Shown in pieces: positions 6,294 through 47,321 of a DNA stretch of 64,000 bases. Source of the stretch: Octopus vulgaris (taxonomy: Eukaryota); NCBI GenBank assembly GCA_951406725.2, contig OX597827.1, positions 54,498,001 through 54,562,000 on the forward strand. Direction: 5' to 3'. Each line of letters opens with the position of its first letter. The first letter of the stretch is position 1. Made by a program: the position numbers and the translations under genes. The notes beneath the pieces were generated by a model that saw only the letters and a program-made list of their open reading frames with translations, was not told the DNA's origin and searched no databases.

Positions 6294-7287
6294 TGTTACG
6301 GACCACCTGCCGTCGCTCCAACTCCTCAAGAAACCCGGGACCCTATCAAGTCAAGCGATGACAATTCACCGGCCCGATCGATCGGTGAACTCGCCACGGA
6401 CTCAGAGAGAGAGAGAATTCGGTGGGGGGGGGGAAGGCGGCAGCGAACACGGCAAGACCAGCGACCGGAGAGAACAACAACAACAACAAACAACAGCAGG
6501 AAGAGACACAAAGAGAGACGACGGAAGGCAATTGGCTACATTTAACAACAGTTTATACAATTATTACAACATCAAATAAATCAAAGATACATCAGGTATA
6601 CATTAAAGAAAACAACAAATCAAATTAAAGCATGCAGATACAATATACAGTTCAGAGACAACTCAGTTCTACATTAACGATACAGTTCAATATTCAAATC
6701 ACATTAAAGTCTTTCTCTTTCTTTAACACGTATCAACAACTCTGTAACACAATTCACAATGTTCTTTATAATCTCATTTCTTTTTCTCTTTAGCGCTGTT
6801 CTTTCTTTTTCCTCTTTCCTTCTTTCTCTTTTTTTTTTTAACACATCAAAATACAACAACCAAAAGACACAAACAAAACTTTACCAAACGTTCTTTCCCC
6901 TCTGCAACAATTTCAGAAACTACTACCGTAATCGCCATGCCCTCTCACCGTAATCTTTCTCAGTTCCTTCTCAGCTCCTTAATTTTCTCTGCCTGTCTTC
7001 CTCTTTCACGTTCACTGCCACCGCAGAAACAACCTGTTACTAACTCGCTCTGTCCTCAACTACCGACTGCCCTCGTATCAGTCCCGTCTCTGCTAGAGCT
7101 GCCGGCTGACTGTTTTTACAGGCTCACATCTCCTGCTTTTTAAAGGGGTGTTTCCTCGAACTTTCTTTCACCTGAAAAGGGTCGAAGGTCTCCCCAGAAC
7201 TCATCAATCCACCTGAATCTAACAGGACAAAGGATTTACTCACAAAAGTCGGTCGCAAGCACTGTCCCTGAATTGACCCCCATAACA
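6294..7287. mobile_element. Solo LTR (probably Gypsy-type) inserted in a TA microsatellite
   Basis: 994 bp, TGTTACGG...CCATAACA termini (7/8 inverted match, TG..CA), ATAT on both sides, CpG-richer than its flanks. Confidence 0.7.
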
Positions 7288-7504
7288 ATATATATATACA
7301 AAGAGAGAGAGAGACAGATAGACATACATACATACTTGTGTGTGTGTGGGTGTGTCTTTTATTTGTGTTTGTTTCACATACCTCATCACCGCTTGACAAC
7401 TGGTGTTGGTTTGTTTATGTCCCTCTAACTTAGCAATTTGGCAAAATGACCAAAAGGATATGTACTAGGCTTTAGAAAACAAAATAAGTACTGGGGTCAA
7501 TTCA

Positions 7505-36525: not shown

Positions 36526-37125
36526 ACATTTATGTTTCTGAATCATCATCATCACCACCACCACCACCACCACCACCACCACCGCCGCCACCACCATCAA
36601 CCACCACCACCAACCACCACCAACACCACCACCACCACCACCACCATCACCACCCCTAACCACCATCAACCACCACTACCAACATTTATGTTGCTGAATC
36701 ATCATCACCACCACCACCACCGCCACCACCATCAACCACCATCACCAACCACCACCAACCACCAACCACCACCAGCACCCCCACCACCACCACCAACAAC
36801 AACAACAACACCAGCACCAACACCACCACCAACACCAACACCACAACCACCACCACTACTACTACCAACATATATGTTTCTGAATCATCATCATCACCAC
36901 CACCACCACCAACAACAACAACAACCACCACCACCATCATCACCATCATCATCGTCGTCATCATCATCACCACCATCATATAGATCAAGTGGGGTAATCT
37001 ATATAAGGAGGTAAAACAGAAATAGTCCTCAGTCAGAAAGATGCCACCACCAAATAAATGTCACATCATCATCGTCGTTGTCATCGTCATCATAACCACC
37101 ACCACCACCACCATCATCATCATCA
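36526..37125. repeat. (CCA/CAT)n array with higher-order units
   Basis: acat(t/a)tatgtt(t/g)ctgaatcatcatca recurs at 36526, 36682 and 36868. Confidence 0.85.
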
Positions 37126-40603: not shown

Positions 40604-41481
40604 ATAATTCAGTACAACTTTAGTGCGTCCTAAGCAGGGTCATAGCCAGATTCTAAAGTTAGTGAGAGTGAGCACGTAAAGATAAGACACTGTAACACAT
40701 ACCAAACAAATTTAAACTCATTACTAATACATTTTATAGAAATCCACCAATTTTGAAAAATTTGCTAGGTATGAACAGTTGCTCTCCTTGCTCCCCCATT
40801 AGCTATGGCATTGGCCCTATTTTTTTGGCAATGTCCTTAACACCACTGTCCTCTGTATGTTAGCAACCAGCTGGTTGTTGCTTGTTACAATGCTCTCTCC
40901 TATGCAGATGATATTATCTGCTAGTTCTCTTTAACCTGCAGCACATTTCTTCTCCATGTGCAACTTCATCACCTCATGTCAAACATAATCTAGTTTCATT
41001 CAAAACCACAAATTCACAGTTCAAACTAAGGATAACCATCTTGTACCTCACAATGTAGGTTGTCACTTGGACAACCTACATTTAAAATCTTCAATTGCTC
41101 CAAATTCTAGGCTACCTTAATCTTTGATAATCTTTCATGGTGATCCCACATTACATGACATAGCTAAAACATTCACCCAAAAGACAAGCCCTCCTCTTCA
41201 GGACTGGTAAATGCTTCAGATTCAATCAGTTAAATAAAGCACGGGTGCTTTTCAATCAGACCCTCAATTAAATTCAATAAGATGGTTTCCTCCCATCCAA
41301 TAGACAGGAATGGGGAGATGTGAGGGGACTCAGAGACAGTGCATTTACAAGTGTAAGAGGATCAAATTATAATGCTATATAATGATCAGCATCAGTGATT
41401 TTGTCGATTGCAAACCACTGGTATATGATGTCATAGTCATGTGGATATGTCATGTGGTAGGTCAGATCAAGTGGGGTAATC

Positions 41482-41515
41482 TATATAAGGAGGTAAAACA
41501 GAAATAGTCCTCAGT
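41482..41515 (+). promoter_or_regulatory. TATA box plus TCAGT initiator upstream of VP1
   Basis: TATATAA at 41482-41488 and TCAGT at 41511-41515 (Inr A 31 nt from TATA start), ATG at 41523. Two gtcatgtgg motifs at 41436 and 41449. Confidence 0.7.
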
Positions 41516-41522
41516 CAGAAAG

Positions 41523-43283
41523 ATGCCACCACCAAGTAAATGTCACATCAAATATGAGGCTGATTTCGAGCCACCAATAAAGAGGAAGGAAAGGATACCC
41601 CATACCAGGCTATGATTTCTTAGGACCAGGAACTGATATTGAAAGAAAGAATTTTTTGGTACCAAAAAGCGCACTCAATGTTGCTACAAAGGATCTGGAG
41701 TCTGCAAATAAAGACATCAATACTTTGGGCACAGACAAGATATTTATTGATCACCCAATATACATTGGTCCTACAGGATTCTTATCTGTTGGTAAACATA
41801 TCTTGGATCTGATATCTACTTCAGACCACCAGAGGCTAACACTAATATCAATCCTTCTACTTCTTATTTATTTATTGCCCACAAGGGGATAAACATAGAG
41901 GGGACAAACAAGGACAGACAAAGGAATAAAGTGGATTACATCGTCCCCAGTGCATAACTGGTACTTAATTTATCAACCCCAAAAGGATGAAAGACAAAGT
42001 CAACCTCGGCGGAATTTGAACACAGAACGTAACGGCAGCCGAAATACTGCTAAGCATTTTACCCGGCGTGCTAATGTTTCTGCCAACTCGTCGCCTTTAT
42101 CAACCCTTCTACTTCTGACCATCTTTGTAATGATATGGCTTTGGATGAAAATATGTGTGACACTATGAGCAAGGGTACAGGATCAAATGGCTGGGAAGGC
42201 ATGCAAATTAGTCCAACTGTGCCAGACCCTTCAAACTCATTCAAACAAGCTTGCACATTCAGTAGAACATTCAGAATTCTAAAATTGGCTGACATGAACA
42301 TTGCAGAAAACAAATTCAAACTCTTCCAAGACAAAAGTGTTAAAATAGCAGTAGTCAAAAGTTTGCATTTCGCATGGCAAATTCTATGGACTTCAACACA
42401 CCATATTTCTTAATGCCATGGATTCAGTCTATTCAATACAAGGCAACTCTGAAGACAACAGTTTCGTACAGAATAGTAAGCATCATTTGCAAAATCAACA
42501 ACATTACAGCAGGAGAATGGACAATCAAAAACAAGACAAAGTCTTCAGACCAAATCCAATGCTATATTTTAAAATATTCATAGACAAAAGACAATACACG
42601 ATATCTCACATACCAAATTTGGGAGTCTTGCAAATTCAACCGAGCAGCTACTCTGAATGTAAAATGCCAATGTGTTCATACTTCTACACATGCTCAAATA
42701 TTATCTTGAAAGCATTTGGAGAAGAACCAAGGAAAGAAGGAAAAAATACCATGAAAGCCAATACATTACATGACTGGCAAGAAATGAAATCAATTAAACT
42801 CAGACAAAGAAATACAATTTACAAGTACACAATACAATCCTGAAATGAGAATTCTACTTCAACAAACAGAAAAAGAAGAATCCTTATATGACATGGGATG
42901 GTTGTTTCAGCTCCAACTTCCAGTGATGAATGGAAAGATGACTCTGTTAATACTGGTGAAATTTGAAAAAGAAAAATGGAAAAAATTAATGATGAGGACC
43001 TGAATTACACAGAAGTTAATTCTGTCACTTTCAACTACCAACCACAGACAAAACATTCAAAGAAGGCAAGATAAATGCTAGTATTCACATAGTGGCTAAC
43101 AGGACATGCATTAACCACACCTTATACTCTTAAGAAGACCTGCCTGAAATGATCCTCATCAACTTTCTGCTCATGACACCTAATGTAACTTTGACTATAA
43201 TTTACTTTAACATTGATGTTACTTACACTCTTGCCATAGAGGCACAGCATGTTGCCATCAACCAGCCACAGAACATGCATTAG
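41523..43283 (+). pseudogene. Parvovirus-like VP1 capsid pseudogene with N-terminal PLA2 region
   Basis: MPPPSK...PPIKRK, frameshift, RKGYPIPGYDFLGPGTDI...PKSALNVATKDLES...TDKIFID. After the SINE: TFSRTFRI, FNTPYFLMPW, YRIVSIICKINNI, NPMLYFKIFID, LPEMILI, YFNIDVTYTLAIEA, which match the order of parvoviral jelly-roll strands. Confidence 0.8.
41865..42097 (-). mobile_element. SINE family B inserted in the viral VP gene, 19-bp TSD
   Basis: tatcaatccttctacttct (41846-41864) and tatcaacccttctacttct (42098-42116). Confidence 0.9.
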
Positions 43284-43456
43284 CCACTTTGATAGAACTA
43301 CTTCTGATGCTTTAACTTTCCCAAGATTCTTCCATGACCATCTAGCTGTCATTCAATCAGGCAGACACTTAAACAGAGAAATACTTGATATGGTTCTTCA
43401 AGGAAGAGCCATATTGGTCAATAACACAAATCCCCGTCTACATCTCAGCAGATACA

Positions 43457-45110
43457 ATGGCAGATTCCTAAATAAACTGACATCATGCAAAATTTTGGGC
43501 TGATGCAATCAAGAAGTTAGCTAATGGAATCGAAAATTTTATTGTAAAAATTGATACAACAGTCAACTGCCACCAGTCAGCTGCCAGTGATGGAAGAGGA
43601 CAGATGCATGAGAAGAGAATTCAACACTGCCTTCAAAGAAAACAGCAACAACAACATCACAGCTTACACTTAGAGTTCAAGCTTTGATACAAATGACAAG
43701 TAGGTTTGTGTGTCAAAAGAATATCTCAACTCACCAGACAAAATTTTAAACTGCAGACATAGAGACACACACAGATACTTGCTGAGAAATCTTTGCCAAA
43801 ATTCTTCCGCCTTAATATTTCATTAATGAGGATCAAGCAAGATAAAACATTGTGATGATATTCCTCACTTTCACATCATCACCTGCTACACTATGTGCCT
43901 GAGTAACAACTGCAGCTCCATCAGACTCAAGACTTAGTTGAAAAACAGACCTAACAAATGCTATGATATTGTCACTTTCAACCCAGAATTAAATACTGAA
44001 TTCAAGTCTTATAAAAGATGGGTGATTGCACAGAACAACATCACAACAGCTGCTCAGAAAATTTTCTTGAGCTATTTAACAGACATGAAGTACAAATAGC
44101 AGCAAGAGCTGCAGAAAGAAATAACCATAAAGCAACATGATGCTGTTCGTGGTCAGCAGTTCAACTTTATAAAAACAATAAGGAACAAGTGCTGAAGACA
44201 TACACGAATGATACCCTTCAGAAAACATGGGAACATATATACAAATCAGCAAACAATCTAATCAACATCATTCAACAAGCATTCATCAACATTTACAGAG
44301 ATGAGAATAATGACAACATACAAGCAAATATAAGAAGAAAAAAGAAAAGTTTGTGTTGATGACAAACACTTACTTGGATGTATAGACATCTCTCAACATC
44401 TTGGACAAATGGTTCAAATATTTCCCATTAAATAAATTCTCACATGGTACATTTGAGATTTGCCTAAAATATCTCCCATGGAAAACAGACTACATATCAA
44501 AGGACCCAGCAACCGTGGAAATAGTTACATTTTAAGAAGCATCAAGAATGGCCTCATGAATTGTAGGAGAATTCAATAGCAGGCTACAGATAACTTTTCT
44601 TTTGGCAGCCGTGCCACTAAAGTCTTCATTATCACAGAAAAGATGTGGTTTACTAACAACAATATAGAAGAGGCAAAATGCATTCTCGAAGGACCACCCA
44701 TGCCTGAATACGTTGCCGTATTTCATCTCCTGTTATGTTCTGAGTTCAAATTCCACTGAGGTTGACTTTGCCTTTCATCCTTTCGGGGTCGATAAATTAA
44801 GTACCAGTTACACACTGGAGTCGTAATCGACTTAATACCTTTGTCTGTCCTTGTTTTCCCCTCTGTGTTTAGCCCCTTGTGGGCAATAAAGAAGTAAAAA
44901 AAAACATCAAGCACCTTTAGCATAAGACATATTTGTCCACTCATTTCAGAGAACCATGGGACACAATCATTCATGTAAAAGCACAATCATGAACAGAATG
45001 CATTACGACAAAATGATTAGATCAATGTTAAGCTTTCAAGAATGGGTTAGAGTTAGAATTGAACCAACTAATGTGGATAAAAATATAGAGAGAGCACATC
45101 ATCTCTGAAA
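43457..45110 (+). pseudogene. Parvovirus-like NS1/Rep pseudogene (HUH endonuclease plus SF3 helicase)
   Basis: DDIPHFHIITCY (HFH at 43866-43874); ENRLHIKGPSNRGNSYILRSI (Walker A relic 44502-44525); DNFSFG, VFIITEKMWF, EEAKCILEG. After the SINE: NIKH, IMNRMHY, ELNQLMW. Start position is uncertain. Confidence 0.85.
44699..44900 (+). mobile_element. SINE family B inserted in the NS1 helicase domain
   Basis: ttctgagttcaaattcc...gcctttcatcctttcggggtcgataaattaagtaccag...gggcaataaaga. Confidence 0.85.
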
Positions 45111-45171
45111 TTTACATGACTGGCAAGAAACCAAAAATATCCAAGTGATTTATTCAACATGAATCCAGCTT

Positions 45172-45453
45172 TGGTTCAGCTGTGTGGTAAGAAGCTTGCT
45201 TCCCAACCACATTGTTCTGAGTTCAGTGCCACTGCATGACACCTTTGACGAGTGTCTTCCACAATAGACAACCGATGTTGGTGTATTTACATCCCCGTAA
45301 CTTAGTGGCTCAGCAAAAGTAATTAATAGAATAAGTACCAGACTTAAAAAAATAAGTACTGGGGTTGATTCATTCGACTAAAATTTACTAAGGTGGTGTC
45401 CCAGCATGGCCACAATCTAATGACTGAAACAAGTAAAAGATAAAGGATAAAAG
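45172..45453 (+). mobile_element. SINE family A (internally deleted) at the NS1 3' end
   Basis: gctgtgtggtaagaag head and aaaagat tail. Confidence 0.8.
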
Positions 45454-46139
45454 ATCCAATCCAGACCAGCCTGAATATTACATGGTATGGCATCCGATGC
45501 ATGTGATTTTAATGATACAATAATCATACATGAAACACTTCCAGGTGCTTCTTCCCCTCCCCGCATGCACAATTACTACCAATGACTTTGCATGATATTG
45601 ATTGGGAAACCAAACTAGAACCAGTTCCTATATTGCCATCCAAATGACAATTACAGAAAAACTCTTTTCCTCAATATGCAACAATGCATGATACATCCTT
45701 TTTTTTTTTTTTCCATAAATTTAACTTCCTTAGAAATGGCCACTTACTACAAAGGCAGCTACAATGACTATTACATTACAAATTCTGATTTGGAATGTTT
45801 TGTTTAAATTATCAATAATGACGACACTTGTCTTCAACATTATCTAAAAAAAATAGGACTTGATATTGTCTCATTGTTTTTATTCACATGCACATGTGCA
45901 CCTGAAAGAATCACATCTAATACTATTATAAGAATGTCGTATCTTTGATATATGATATTCTTAATAATTTATTATCTTTATTATATGTACATAGATATCA
46001 ATTTCACTGATACTTTTCCAAGAAATGGGTAACTCTGCCACCAGTGATTATTAATAAAAAAGAAAAAATACATATAACAAAATTAATCTTATTTTAAAAA
46101 CAAAGACAAAATCAAAATATAAGAAGAAACTGAAAACGA

Positions 46140-47321
46140 ATGTTTCCAAGTATTAAATGTAGCATGTCAAAAGAAATAAAATAAAATGTTATATTTCTCT
46201 CAACACACTTCATCCAATATTTGTTAAAAGTCGTTTTCAGTTTCTCGCTGCCTTGACTGGCTTCTGTGCTGGTGGCACGTAAAAAGCAGGTGAGGAGGGG
46301 TATTTCCACTGCATGAATTGTCTCTTTGTCTCTGGTTCTATGGCTTAGGAAATATTCAAGGAAACCAACTGGATCTGCCTCAAACATTGTCAGATTTTCC
46401 CATGATGTGTTCAACTTGGTGTGTTTTTGCTTAGGTATGAGATGTACCACCCACTGAGCAGCAACCTTCGTGGAGGCGCAATGGCCCAATGGTTAGGGCA
46501 GCAGACTCTATTTATTGAGCGAAAACACCTAAAGCTCCACGAGGCTCTGGCAGGGGGTGGTGGCGACCCCTGTTGTACTTTTTCGCTCCAACTTTCTCTC
46601 ACTCTTTCTTCCTGTTTCTTGTCCCCGACTTCTTACGCAACCACTGAACCTGGATGCGCATTCATCCATCTGTCGGTGTTCTCGGTGTCAGGGGTTGACC
46701 TGCTTTCTCTTCTGCAGGTCTTACAAATAGCAAAGGACCACGTTTCAGACTTCTCCCATCTTGCGAGCTCTGGGACGAAGACCGTTCGCTCAACAGCAAC
46801 AGTAGCAACCTTCATCATATCAAGTTCATTGTGCAGAATATTCTCAACTCTCACACAGCATATGCTAATAACATTAGCTATTTGATTTATGGTCAATTGC
46901 TTGTCATACATCAGCATGTGGTGCACATGATTGATGTCTTCATTGGTGGTGACAGTTGCAAGACATCCAGATCTTAGGTCATCTTCAAAACTCTCCCTTC
47001 CTCTCCTCAATTCAGCTGCCCACTTTTGCACTGATGATAAAGCTGGTACATCATCTCCTAATATAGCAACCATGTCAGCGTGAATGTTGTTGGGAACCAA
47101 ATCTTCTTTCTGTAGGCATTTGATAACCCCACAATGCTAAATGTTGTCCATTTCCAAGAGAAGTCACAACTAGTTACTTTTGAAATCTTCTTTGAACAGC
47201 CAGGTATCAGTGTATCTGCAAAGACTCAATGAAAGAAGATTTGAAATTAATGCATGCAAGATTTCATAGTTCCAGCATCACTCCTTCATAGTCAGCTCAT
47301 GAACTTTTCAGCCCACTCTCA
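46140..47321 (-). mobile_element. Degenerate, internally deleted mariner element
   Basis: TIR-like tatgagagtgggctgaaaagttc at the right end. Minus-strand IHADMVAILGDDVPALSSVQKWAAELRRGRESFEDDLRSG...ILHNELDMMKV, FEADPVGFLEYFL and KYWMKCVERN. Confidence 0.85.
46470..46800 (+). mobile_element. SINE (family C-related head) inserted in the mariner, 13-bp TSD
   Basis: agcagcaaccttc (46457-46469) and agtagcaaccttc (46801-46813). Head gtggaggcgcaatggcccaatggttag resembles the 18533 element. Confidence 0.8.

Follow-up and report, generated by a model that had tools for sequence, protein, structure and literature searches.

Parvoviruses are described as carrying NS on the left of the genome and VP, the capsid gene, on the right, a layout that Kibenge et al. 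(PMC11357303) give for all of them. In a 64,000-nt stretch of the Octopus vulgaris genome (contig OX597827.1, positions 54,498,001 to 54,562,000; hereafter the window, in which all coordinates below are counted), a parvovirus-like element shows a VP-like gene 5' of an NS1-like gene, both on the + strand. Was this order native to the virus, or did it arise when viral DNA was integrated? Our analysis favors the former with moderate confidence: the element would be a germ-line copy of an undescribed cephalopod parvovirus-like virus with a native linear VP-NS order.

The surrounding genome is 2.8 Gb in size and repeat-rich. Both genes of the element are broken, and three inserts resembling short interspersed elements (SINEs) interrupt it. 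The initial annotation had placed the element at 41464..45700; subtraction of ~725 nt of inserts from these 4237 nt leaves ~3.5 kb, as it had estimated, and the three SINEs and all of the motifs that it named, from the TATA-like box at 41482 to LNQLMW at ~45075, were found in their places. The viral content of this span also held, but its right end did not find support, since similarity to the virus in tblastn searches stops at ~45170. Without SINEs 1 and 2, the viral coding span is ~3.2 kb.

The downstream gene is an NS1 pseudogene (~43590..~45170, + strand, both ends approximate) that comprises an N-terminal region, a HUH motif, an SF3 helicase and a basic tail, and it is damaged by stops, frame changes and SINE 2. 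Its start at 43590 was placed by a weak match to the N-terminus of a paralogous locus, L045 (E 0.038); NS similarity in tblastn and profile searches extends across 43926-45169, and the profile of the relatives matches 44091-44702 at E 8e-51. HUH endonuclease motif II (HFHII; 43866..43880, + strand) has equivalents at the same position in L045 (HFHII) and L043 (HFHVI). The HUH evidence is at the motif level, HFH(I/V)I N-terminal to the helicase at three loci, and Pfam Rep_N gave no match in the NS region of the window. The SF3 helicase core (44466..44702, + strand) contains Walker A (degenerate here), Walker B and B' motifs. Along the gene, GPSNRGNS lies at 44502, AKCILEG before 44707, NIKH just after 44902, and NRM and LNQLMW at ~44990-45075.

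A single-frame piece of the helicase, with stops written as X, scored 21.9 bits against PF01057 (Parvo_NS1; cut-off 20), and NS relatives scored 57 bits. The same piece retrieved two relatives in a word-indexed search and 19 matches in a representative search (best E 1e-25), eight of these, 54-67% identical, reached E 1e-10, and of the weak ones at least two were repetitive noise. The profile of the helicase relatives had adeno-associated virus (AAV) Rep40/68 as its best PDB match (E 4.5e-14), and the NS1 relatives fell among the parvoviral NS1 clusters of a protein atlas (0.96-0.97). The parvoviral identity first proposed for the element was thus borne out by PF01057 and by profiles of relatives that match both NS and VP.

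The upstream gene is a capsid (VP1) pseudogene (41523..43476, + strand) with an N-terminal PLA2-like region, a jelly-roll body and a C-terminal G-x-F-x-N-K, interrupted by one SINE and by several stops and frame changes, as seen from the tblastn frames. The promoter region (41482..41522, + strand) has a TATA-like box at 41482, 41 nt 5' of the ATG, and ~29 nt 3' of this box is TCAGT, a putative initiator-like element. A TATA box lies 38-47 nt before the VP ATG at all of the MPP-start loci scanned (4/4: window, L042, L017 and L058). The ATG of MPPPSK is at 41523, and GYPIPGYDFLGPG begins at ~41590, the start of the PLA2-like domain (41590..41787, + strand), in which the calcium-loop motif is kept and the catalytic helix is degenerate. 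PF08398 matched this region at E 0.019, below its cut-off; it exceeded the cut-off in the paralogue P0024 (28.7 bits) and is also annotated on P0031-P0035. The VP profiles of the relatives matched the window at 41590-43277 in five stretches (E 2e-7 to 2e-17), and the window itself was the sole match when the genome was searched at the DNA level with the VP stretch. The gene had been thought to end at ~43283; however, it continues to ~43476, where G-R-F-L-N-K corresponds to the G-x-F-x-N-K end of intact relatives, most of which keep N-K. The last two sense codons (N, K) form AATAAA (43471..43476, + strand), likely the VP polyadenylation signal. Because both genes are broken, and both the Walker A motif and the PLA2 catalytic region have degenerated, the window copy is a fossil, unable to make working proteins. 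A 19-bp exact repeat is shared by VP (42766-42784, in the conserved LHDW-E motif) and the NS tail (45112-45130; E 0.006) and would be due to coincidence or to a short templated insertion.

Nine more VP relatives were reached through L042, a paralogue with less decay; five of them are intact (606-621 aa, with PF08398), and in the intact relatives PLA2 and capsid share one open reading frame (ORF). These intact relatives sit on contigs of up to 4470 nt, and in one VP cluster five of the seven members are on contigs of 4065-4078 nt, which suggests that these contigs are whole genomes. A cuttlefish genome protein, CAE1320483.1, is also a VP relative, and scans of IMG/VR and JGI metagenomes with the NS and VP alignments returned no relative. 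One VP relative was placed among the parvoviral VP1 clusters of the protein atlas (0.93-0.94). We modeled, at low confidence, the intact relative P0034, which tblastn links to the window at E 2e-23, and the top 16 matches to this model among 48161 chains were parvovirus capsids (Z 10.3-7.2; root-mean-square deviation 4.5-7.3 over 190-231 residues; identity 10-15%), with other jelly rolls scoring from Z 6.9 downward. The top BFVD matches of the model were parvoviral VP1 proteins (E 4e-12). A PDB sequence search with VP gave no match, and Foldseek found nothing significant for a first VP model built from four sequences (pLDDT 33), with AAV and goose parvovirus capsids heading the weak rows. On the basis of the P0034 fold, BFVD, the atlas and the intact PF08398-bearing relatives, the upstream gene is an entire capsid gene of parvoviral type and not merely a PLA2 ORF.

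To compare gene order among loci, ~10 kb was taken around each distinct NS or VP search match in the genome, the searches giving lower bounds. Nineteen stretches were scanned with VP and NS profiles, and since L044 is a 98% duplicate of L043, they represent 18 independent loci. Both genes were found by profile at four of the 18 (window, L017, L043/L044 and L045), and VP preceded NS on the same strand at all four, the order NS-then-VP being found at none; the other loci were single-gene by profile (five VP-only, nine NS-only). At L042, VP-only by profile, an inserted repeat follows the VP stop and is itself followed by a 13-aa match to the L045 NS N-terminus (E 0.002), a sequence match that lends weak support to a fifth VP-then-NS locus. 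The NS C-terminus is kept at seven loci (window, L010, L014, L017, L043/44, L045 and L051) and VP lies downstream at none of them (0/7); the VP N-terminus is kept at six (window, L017, L042, L043/44, L057 and L058) and NS lies upstream at none (0/6). Because nucleotide identity between the loci is just 65-69% in short stretches of the helicase, with unrelated flanks, these alignments indicate that they are separate integrations of different viruses. In a helicase tree of endogenous viral elements (EVEs) and NS relatives only, the loci did not group together, and the tree was poorly resolved (2/20 inner branches starred), too much so to put the loci in order.

The VP-NS junction of the window (43477..43589, + strand; ~114 nt) has no hairpin and no TATA box, and it is contiguous in the sequencing contigs of other individuals and species. 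In L045, only 27 nt separate the VP stop from the next ATG; neither this junction nor that of the window folds (z -0.9 and -1.4, respectively) or contains a TATA box. Of two explanations offered at the outset, a permuted undescribed lineage is therefore favored over a one-off circular or head-to-tail integration, given the VP-then-NS order at 4/4 loci and short junctions without telomere or promoter remnants. The findings that the initial annotation had named as telling against it, namely missing profile matches, two separate insertions and canonical paralogues, did not emerge. Two observations at individual loci may be added. L043 (G000:C20:34.47 Mb) and L044 (34.49 Mb) are two copies of one EVE with its flanks, ~18 kb apart and 98% identical across 9.8 kb, and represent either a tandem segmental duplication or an uncollapsed haplotype. 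The NS-only copies L010, L046, L048 and P0006 start at a near-equal point just after the HUH motif, which might be a splice acceptor or an internal start.

The stretch or parts of it were present in 20 listed runs from 10 studies, and no RNA run was among the listed runs carrying it. We compared contigs from four runs of four studies with four organism labels (A, C, D and F). Across a contig of 2686 nt, a second individual of organism A showed 4 differing letters; organism C was ~2% diverged, with a single contig without SINE 1; organism F was ~6% diverged, with one 4183-nt contig that joins the left flank, VP and NS and skips SINEs 1 and 2; and in organism D the element was covered in pieces. 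The contigs of all four runs enter SINE 3. These results indicate that the insertion is real, is orthologous in at least four organisms and predates the A-F split. Because F skips SINEs 1 and 2, C skips SINE 1, and all have SINE 3, the inserts arrived in the order SINE 3, SINE 2, SINE 1. Insert 1 (41853..42104) has a ~17-bp target-site duplication and was recognized by self-matches; insert 2 (44707..44902) belongs to the same family in the opposite orientation; and insert 3 (45179..45455), of another family, lies in or just 3' of the NS tail. All are high-copy repeats, which as such cover 41858-42098, 44707-44901 and 45179-45455, with 16-18 overlapping self-matches each within the window.

Several points weigh against a native VP-NS order. 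The longest NS1 relative returned was 363 aa, with no full-length one (~500 aa), and the helicase-bearing relatives looked up were mostly on contigs of 1.1-2.3 kb, with one cluster at 3.6 kb; the lack of a full-length NS1 is unexpected if the ~4.1 kb VP contigs are intact two-gene genomes. The L017 and L043/44 junctions carry deletions, as junctions of circularized genomes often do. The VP remnant of L045 is weak (profile E 0.0017), and the NS piece of L042 is weaker. Telomeres were identified at none of the loci, the order is seen solely in endogenous copies of one genome and their orthologues, and the confidence of the P0034 model is low (pLDDT 40).

One alternative, an unlikely one, retains a native VP-NS order but makes the genome circular, with replication resembling that of circular Rep-encoding single-stranded (CRESS) DNA viruses; integration would always open the circle at an origin located after the NS end and before the VP promoter. 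A circle of this kind would account for the single order at all of the two-gene loci and for finding no hairpin telomeres, and the uniform 4065-4078 nt contigs suit a circle as well as a line. However, random opening should sometimes yield a locus that spans the NS end to the VP start, and no locus does so; weak palindromic GC-rich patches (z about -3) occur 3' of NS in L017 and 5' of VP in L042; and both proteins are of the linear-parvovirus type.

Equally unlikely in our estimate is a canonical NS-VP virus whose copies span the fused, deleted ends of circular episomes or head-to-tail concatemers. Continuous duplex intermediates do arise in parvovirus replication (PMC6537627), the deletions at the L017 and L043/44 junctions are in line with such fusions, and the genome contains a young concatemer of another parvovirus lineage (the C4 array described below). 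That concatemer, however, retained its palindromic repeats. Fusion would moreover require that, in each of four to five different viruses, both telomeres as well as the NS promoter were lost and the break fell exactly between NS and VP, while in at least two cases the VP end and the NS start were spared 27-114 nt apart; and the NS-to-VP junction, expected to be the commonest, is kept at 0/18 loci and in 0/4 two-gene copies.

We consider it distinctly less probable still that the lineage was bipartite, with VP and NS segments joined in the genome, or that VP and NS are two separate insertions. By profile 14 of the 18 loci are single-gene, NS relatives are on short contigs with no full-length NS1 to accompany the VP-sized contigs, and a VP-only unit exists for a second lineage of this genome, all of which would fit; but the single-gene loci are mostly short fragments, and joined segments would be expected to differ in order and orientation and to retain terminal sequence between the genes, whereas the order and strand agree at 4/4 loci and the intact junctions contain no terminus. 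An assembly artefact or contaminating viral sequence can be dismissed with near certainty, given the host SINEs inside the element, its flanks of host sequence and the recurrence of the joined arrangement across four runs that come from four studies and carry four organism labels.

With the native linear VP-NS genome as our preferred reading of the window element, the broader picture is one that we regard as likely: cephalopods would host a living lineage, divergent at the subfamily level, with a native VP-then-NS monosense genome, maybe circular, in which the terminal promoter is owned by the capsid gene. The coding order of the virus would be promoter, VP (PLA2 and jelly roll), AATAAA, short spacer and NS1 (HUH and SF3), on one strand. 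The living virus would have a linear single-stranded DNA genome of ~4.1-4.5 kb, replicated by an NS1-driven rolling hairpin through nicking and helicase activities. The outermost TATA promoter would give a VP mRNA ending at the AATAAA of the last VP codons; because the junction has no TATA box, NS1 would have to be expressed either by a promoter lying in the 3' portion of VP, or by splicing or read-through of the RNA that starts at the outer promoter, so that the expression layout would mirror the usual parvovirus arrangement. VP1 with its PLA2 would serve endosomal escape. Duplex DNA would have been captured by chance in the germ line, by end-joining, before the A-F split, and the integrated copy would then have gained its stops, frame changes and three SINEs; that the integrated molecule was DNA and not mRNA is suggested by the retained TATA box. 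The replication, escape and capture steps of this model draw on established parvovirus biology (PMC6537627).

How does such a virus compare with known parvoviruses? The NS-left/VP-right layout does not serve as an ICTV demarcation criterion; PLA2 in VP1 is common, not universal, in the Parvoviridae, which have T=1 virions, rolling-hairpin replication and linear single-stranded DNA genomes that are 4-6 kb in size and end in hairpins, and EVEs commonly lose genome ends. PMC13426907 names the SF3 helicase NS1 as the basis of family-wide classification. Our lineage has the SF3 helicase, the HUH motif, the jelly-roll capsid fold and PLA2 in VP1 that characterize Parvoviridae proteins; although these are present, we filed it as parvovirus-like because VP lies 5' of NS on the same strand, contrary to the layout given in PMC11357303, and its membership in the family is provisional. 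The monosense PLA2-bearing Parvovirinae share with it an NS1 with HUH and SF3, a jelly-roll VP1 with PLA2, coding on one strand and a ~4 kb scale; in contrast to them, the order here is reversed, the outer TATA promoter is on VP, there is no close sequence relative, and the host is an invertebrate. Iteradensoviruses are also monosense Parvoviridae with a PLA2-bearing VP1. The Acheta domesticus segmented densovirus is reportedly bipartite, with its genes on separate segments, an example of how the parvoviral cassette layout can change; here, in contrast, the genes are adjacent with no terminus between them. The Penbrevirinae (formerly Brevi- and Penstylhamaparvovirus, e.g., infectious hypodermal and hematopoietic necrosis virus, IHHNV) are monosense, ~4 kb in size and found in invertebrate hosts, and the Penaeus stylirostris densovirus capsid was fold match 5 of the P0034 model (Z 8.9). 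However, NS precedes VP in that group, and VP is ~300 aa there and ~610 aa here. An affinity of NS1 with this group had been suggested at first, but the presence of PLA2 and the better fold matches of Parvovirinae capsids, only ~1.4 Z ahead of the P. stylirostris densovirus capsid, do not support it; penaeid parvoviruses are without PLA2 (PMC11357303).

A beetle megaparvovirus, SwaBA-MePV-1, also has a PLA2-coding ORF 5' of NS1, and its lineage is known partly from EVEs that keep the ORF order, according to PMC13426907. Its genome of ~6.4 kb consists of a separate 5' PLA2 ORF, an unknown ORF, NS1 and then VP in the same source, whereas in our ~4 kb lineage PLA2 and the whole capsid form one gene 5' of NS1 and no capsid gene follows NS. 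Francois et al. (2016; PMC5013282) reported parvovirus-related sequences from mollusc hosts that are by similarity nearer to the Parvovirinae but outside all known genera; the main text mentions neither octopus nor gene order. BtaDV was set aside as a comparator because it is ambisense (PMC12297876). The accessible portions of PMC7737747, PMC6631224 and bioRxiv 10.64898/2026.03.16.711951 contain nothing on a reversed order or on this lineage, and no VP-before-NS monosense parvovirus or cephalopod parvoviral EVE was found in the literature searched, where subscription journals are thinly covered.

The usual model, in which the terminal promoter drives NS early and NS1 then activates expression of the capsid, is built on the NS-left/VP-right rule. 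A virus lineage of reversed order would need another route to early NS1 and would mean that cassette order is not fixed. Our analysis records a cephalopod parvovirus-like lineage with at least 18 loci, a cuttlefish relative and intact-looking, genome-sized public contigs, and the orthologous copies give it a minimum age. If the order is native and the genome circular, the lineage would link parvoviruses to CRESS-type replicons.

A second, distant parvoviral lineage is present in the same genome. L052, L053 and L059 (G000:C4:168.36-168.38 Mb) make up a young array, with head-to-tail and inverted copies, of a VP-only unit of ~3.0-3.2 kb, 98-100% identical, in which an intact VP of ~540 aa bears PLA2 (PF08398, 50 bits) and gives a weak IHHNV_capsid match. 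The spacers hold ~124-nt repeats and palindromes, and no NS match was found in the array, which has the look of an integrated concatemer made by rolling-hairpin replication, either of a genome segment or of a defective genome. NS1 copies of the second lineage (L011, L012 at 6860-7500, L013, L015 and L016) form a separate clade (100/100). The sequence 3' of the NS stop in L016, L015 and L013 resembles that 3' of the C4 VP stop (E 8e-9 to 4e-6), and in L016 a VP C-terminal piece lies 57 nt before a 5'-deleted NS. The second lineage is either bipartite, with ends common to its segments, or another lineage of VP-then-NS order; given its 3' NS and VP-only unit, cephalopod parvoviruses in general may have a layout that is rearranged or split. 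Both lineages have NS fragments at L012 (G000:C14:64.33 Mb), separated by 1.3 kb.

The remaining features of the window lie at or beyond the ends of the element. GTCAT-type short repeats (41421..41463, + strand), seen in the sequence 5' of the TATA box with a best hairpin of z -1.7, are possibly a remnant of the left-end promoter region, a weak suggestion. A folding scan found no clear terminal hairpin at the ends of the window element, and an Rfam search of the stretch gave no match; windows of z about -3 at 45606-45976 were rejected as a hairpin end because they are AT-rich and probably host sequence. An 87-bp copy of the VP promoter and start (41464-41550) occurs at 36982..37068 (+ strand), 4482 bp upstream, with one mismatch; it sits in an ATC/CAC microsatellite, with which it shares microhomology at both ends, and is probably a secondary duplication by templated repair insertion. 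That it might be a terminal repeat, or the remnant of a concatemer, was rejected in view of its microsatellite context, the lack of adjoining viral sequence and the one differing base. Breaks at 41506-41535 occur in the contigs of A and C and in none from D or F, suggesting that the copy arose after the D and F splits. Finally, a mariner-like transposase fragment (46633-47136, - strand; HTH_48, E 0.043) lies 3' of the element, with an imperfect inverted repeat at 46125-46245.

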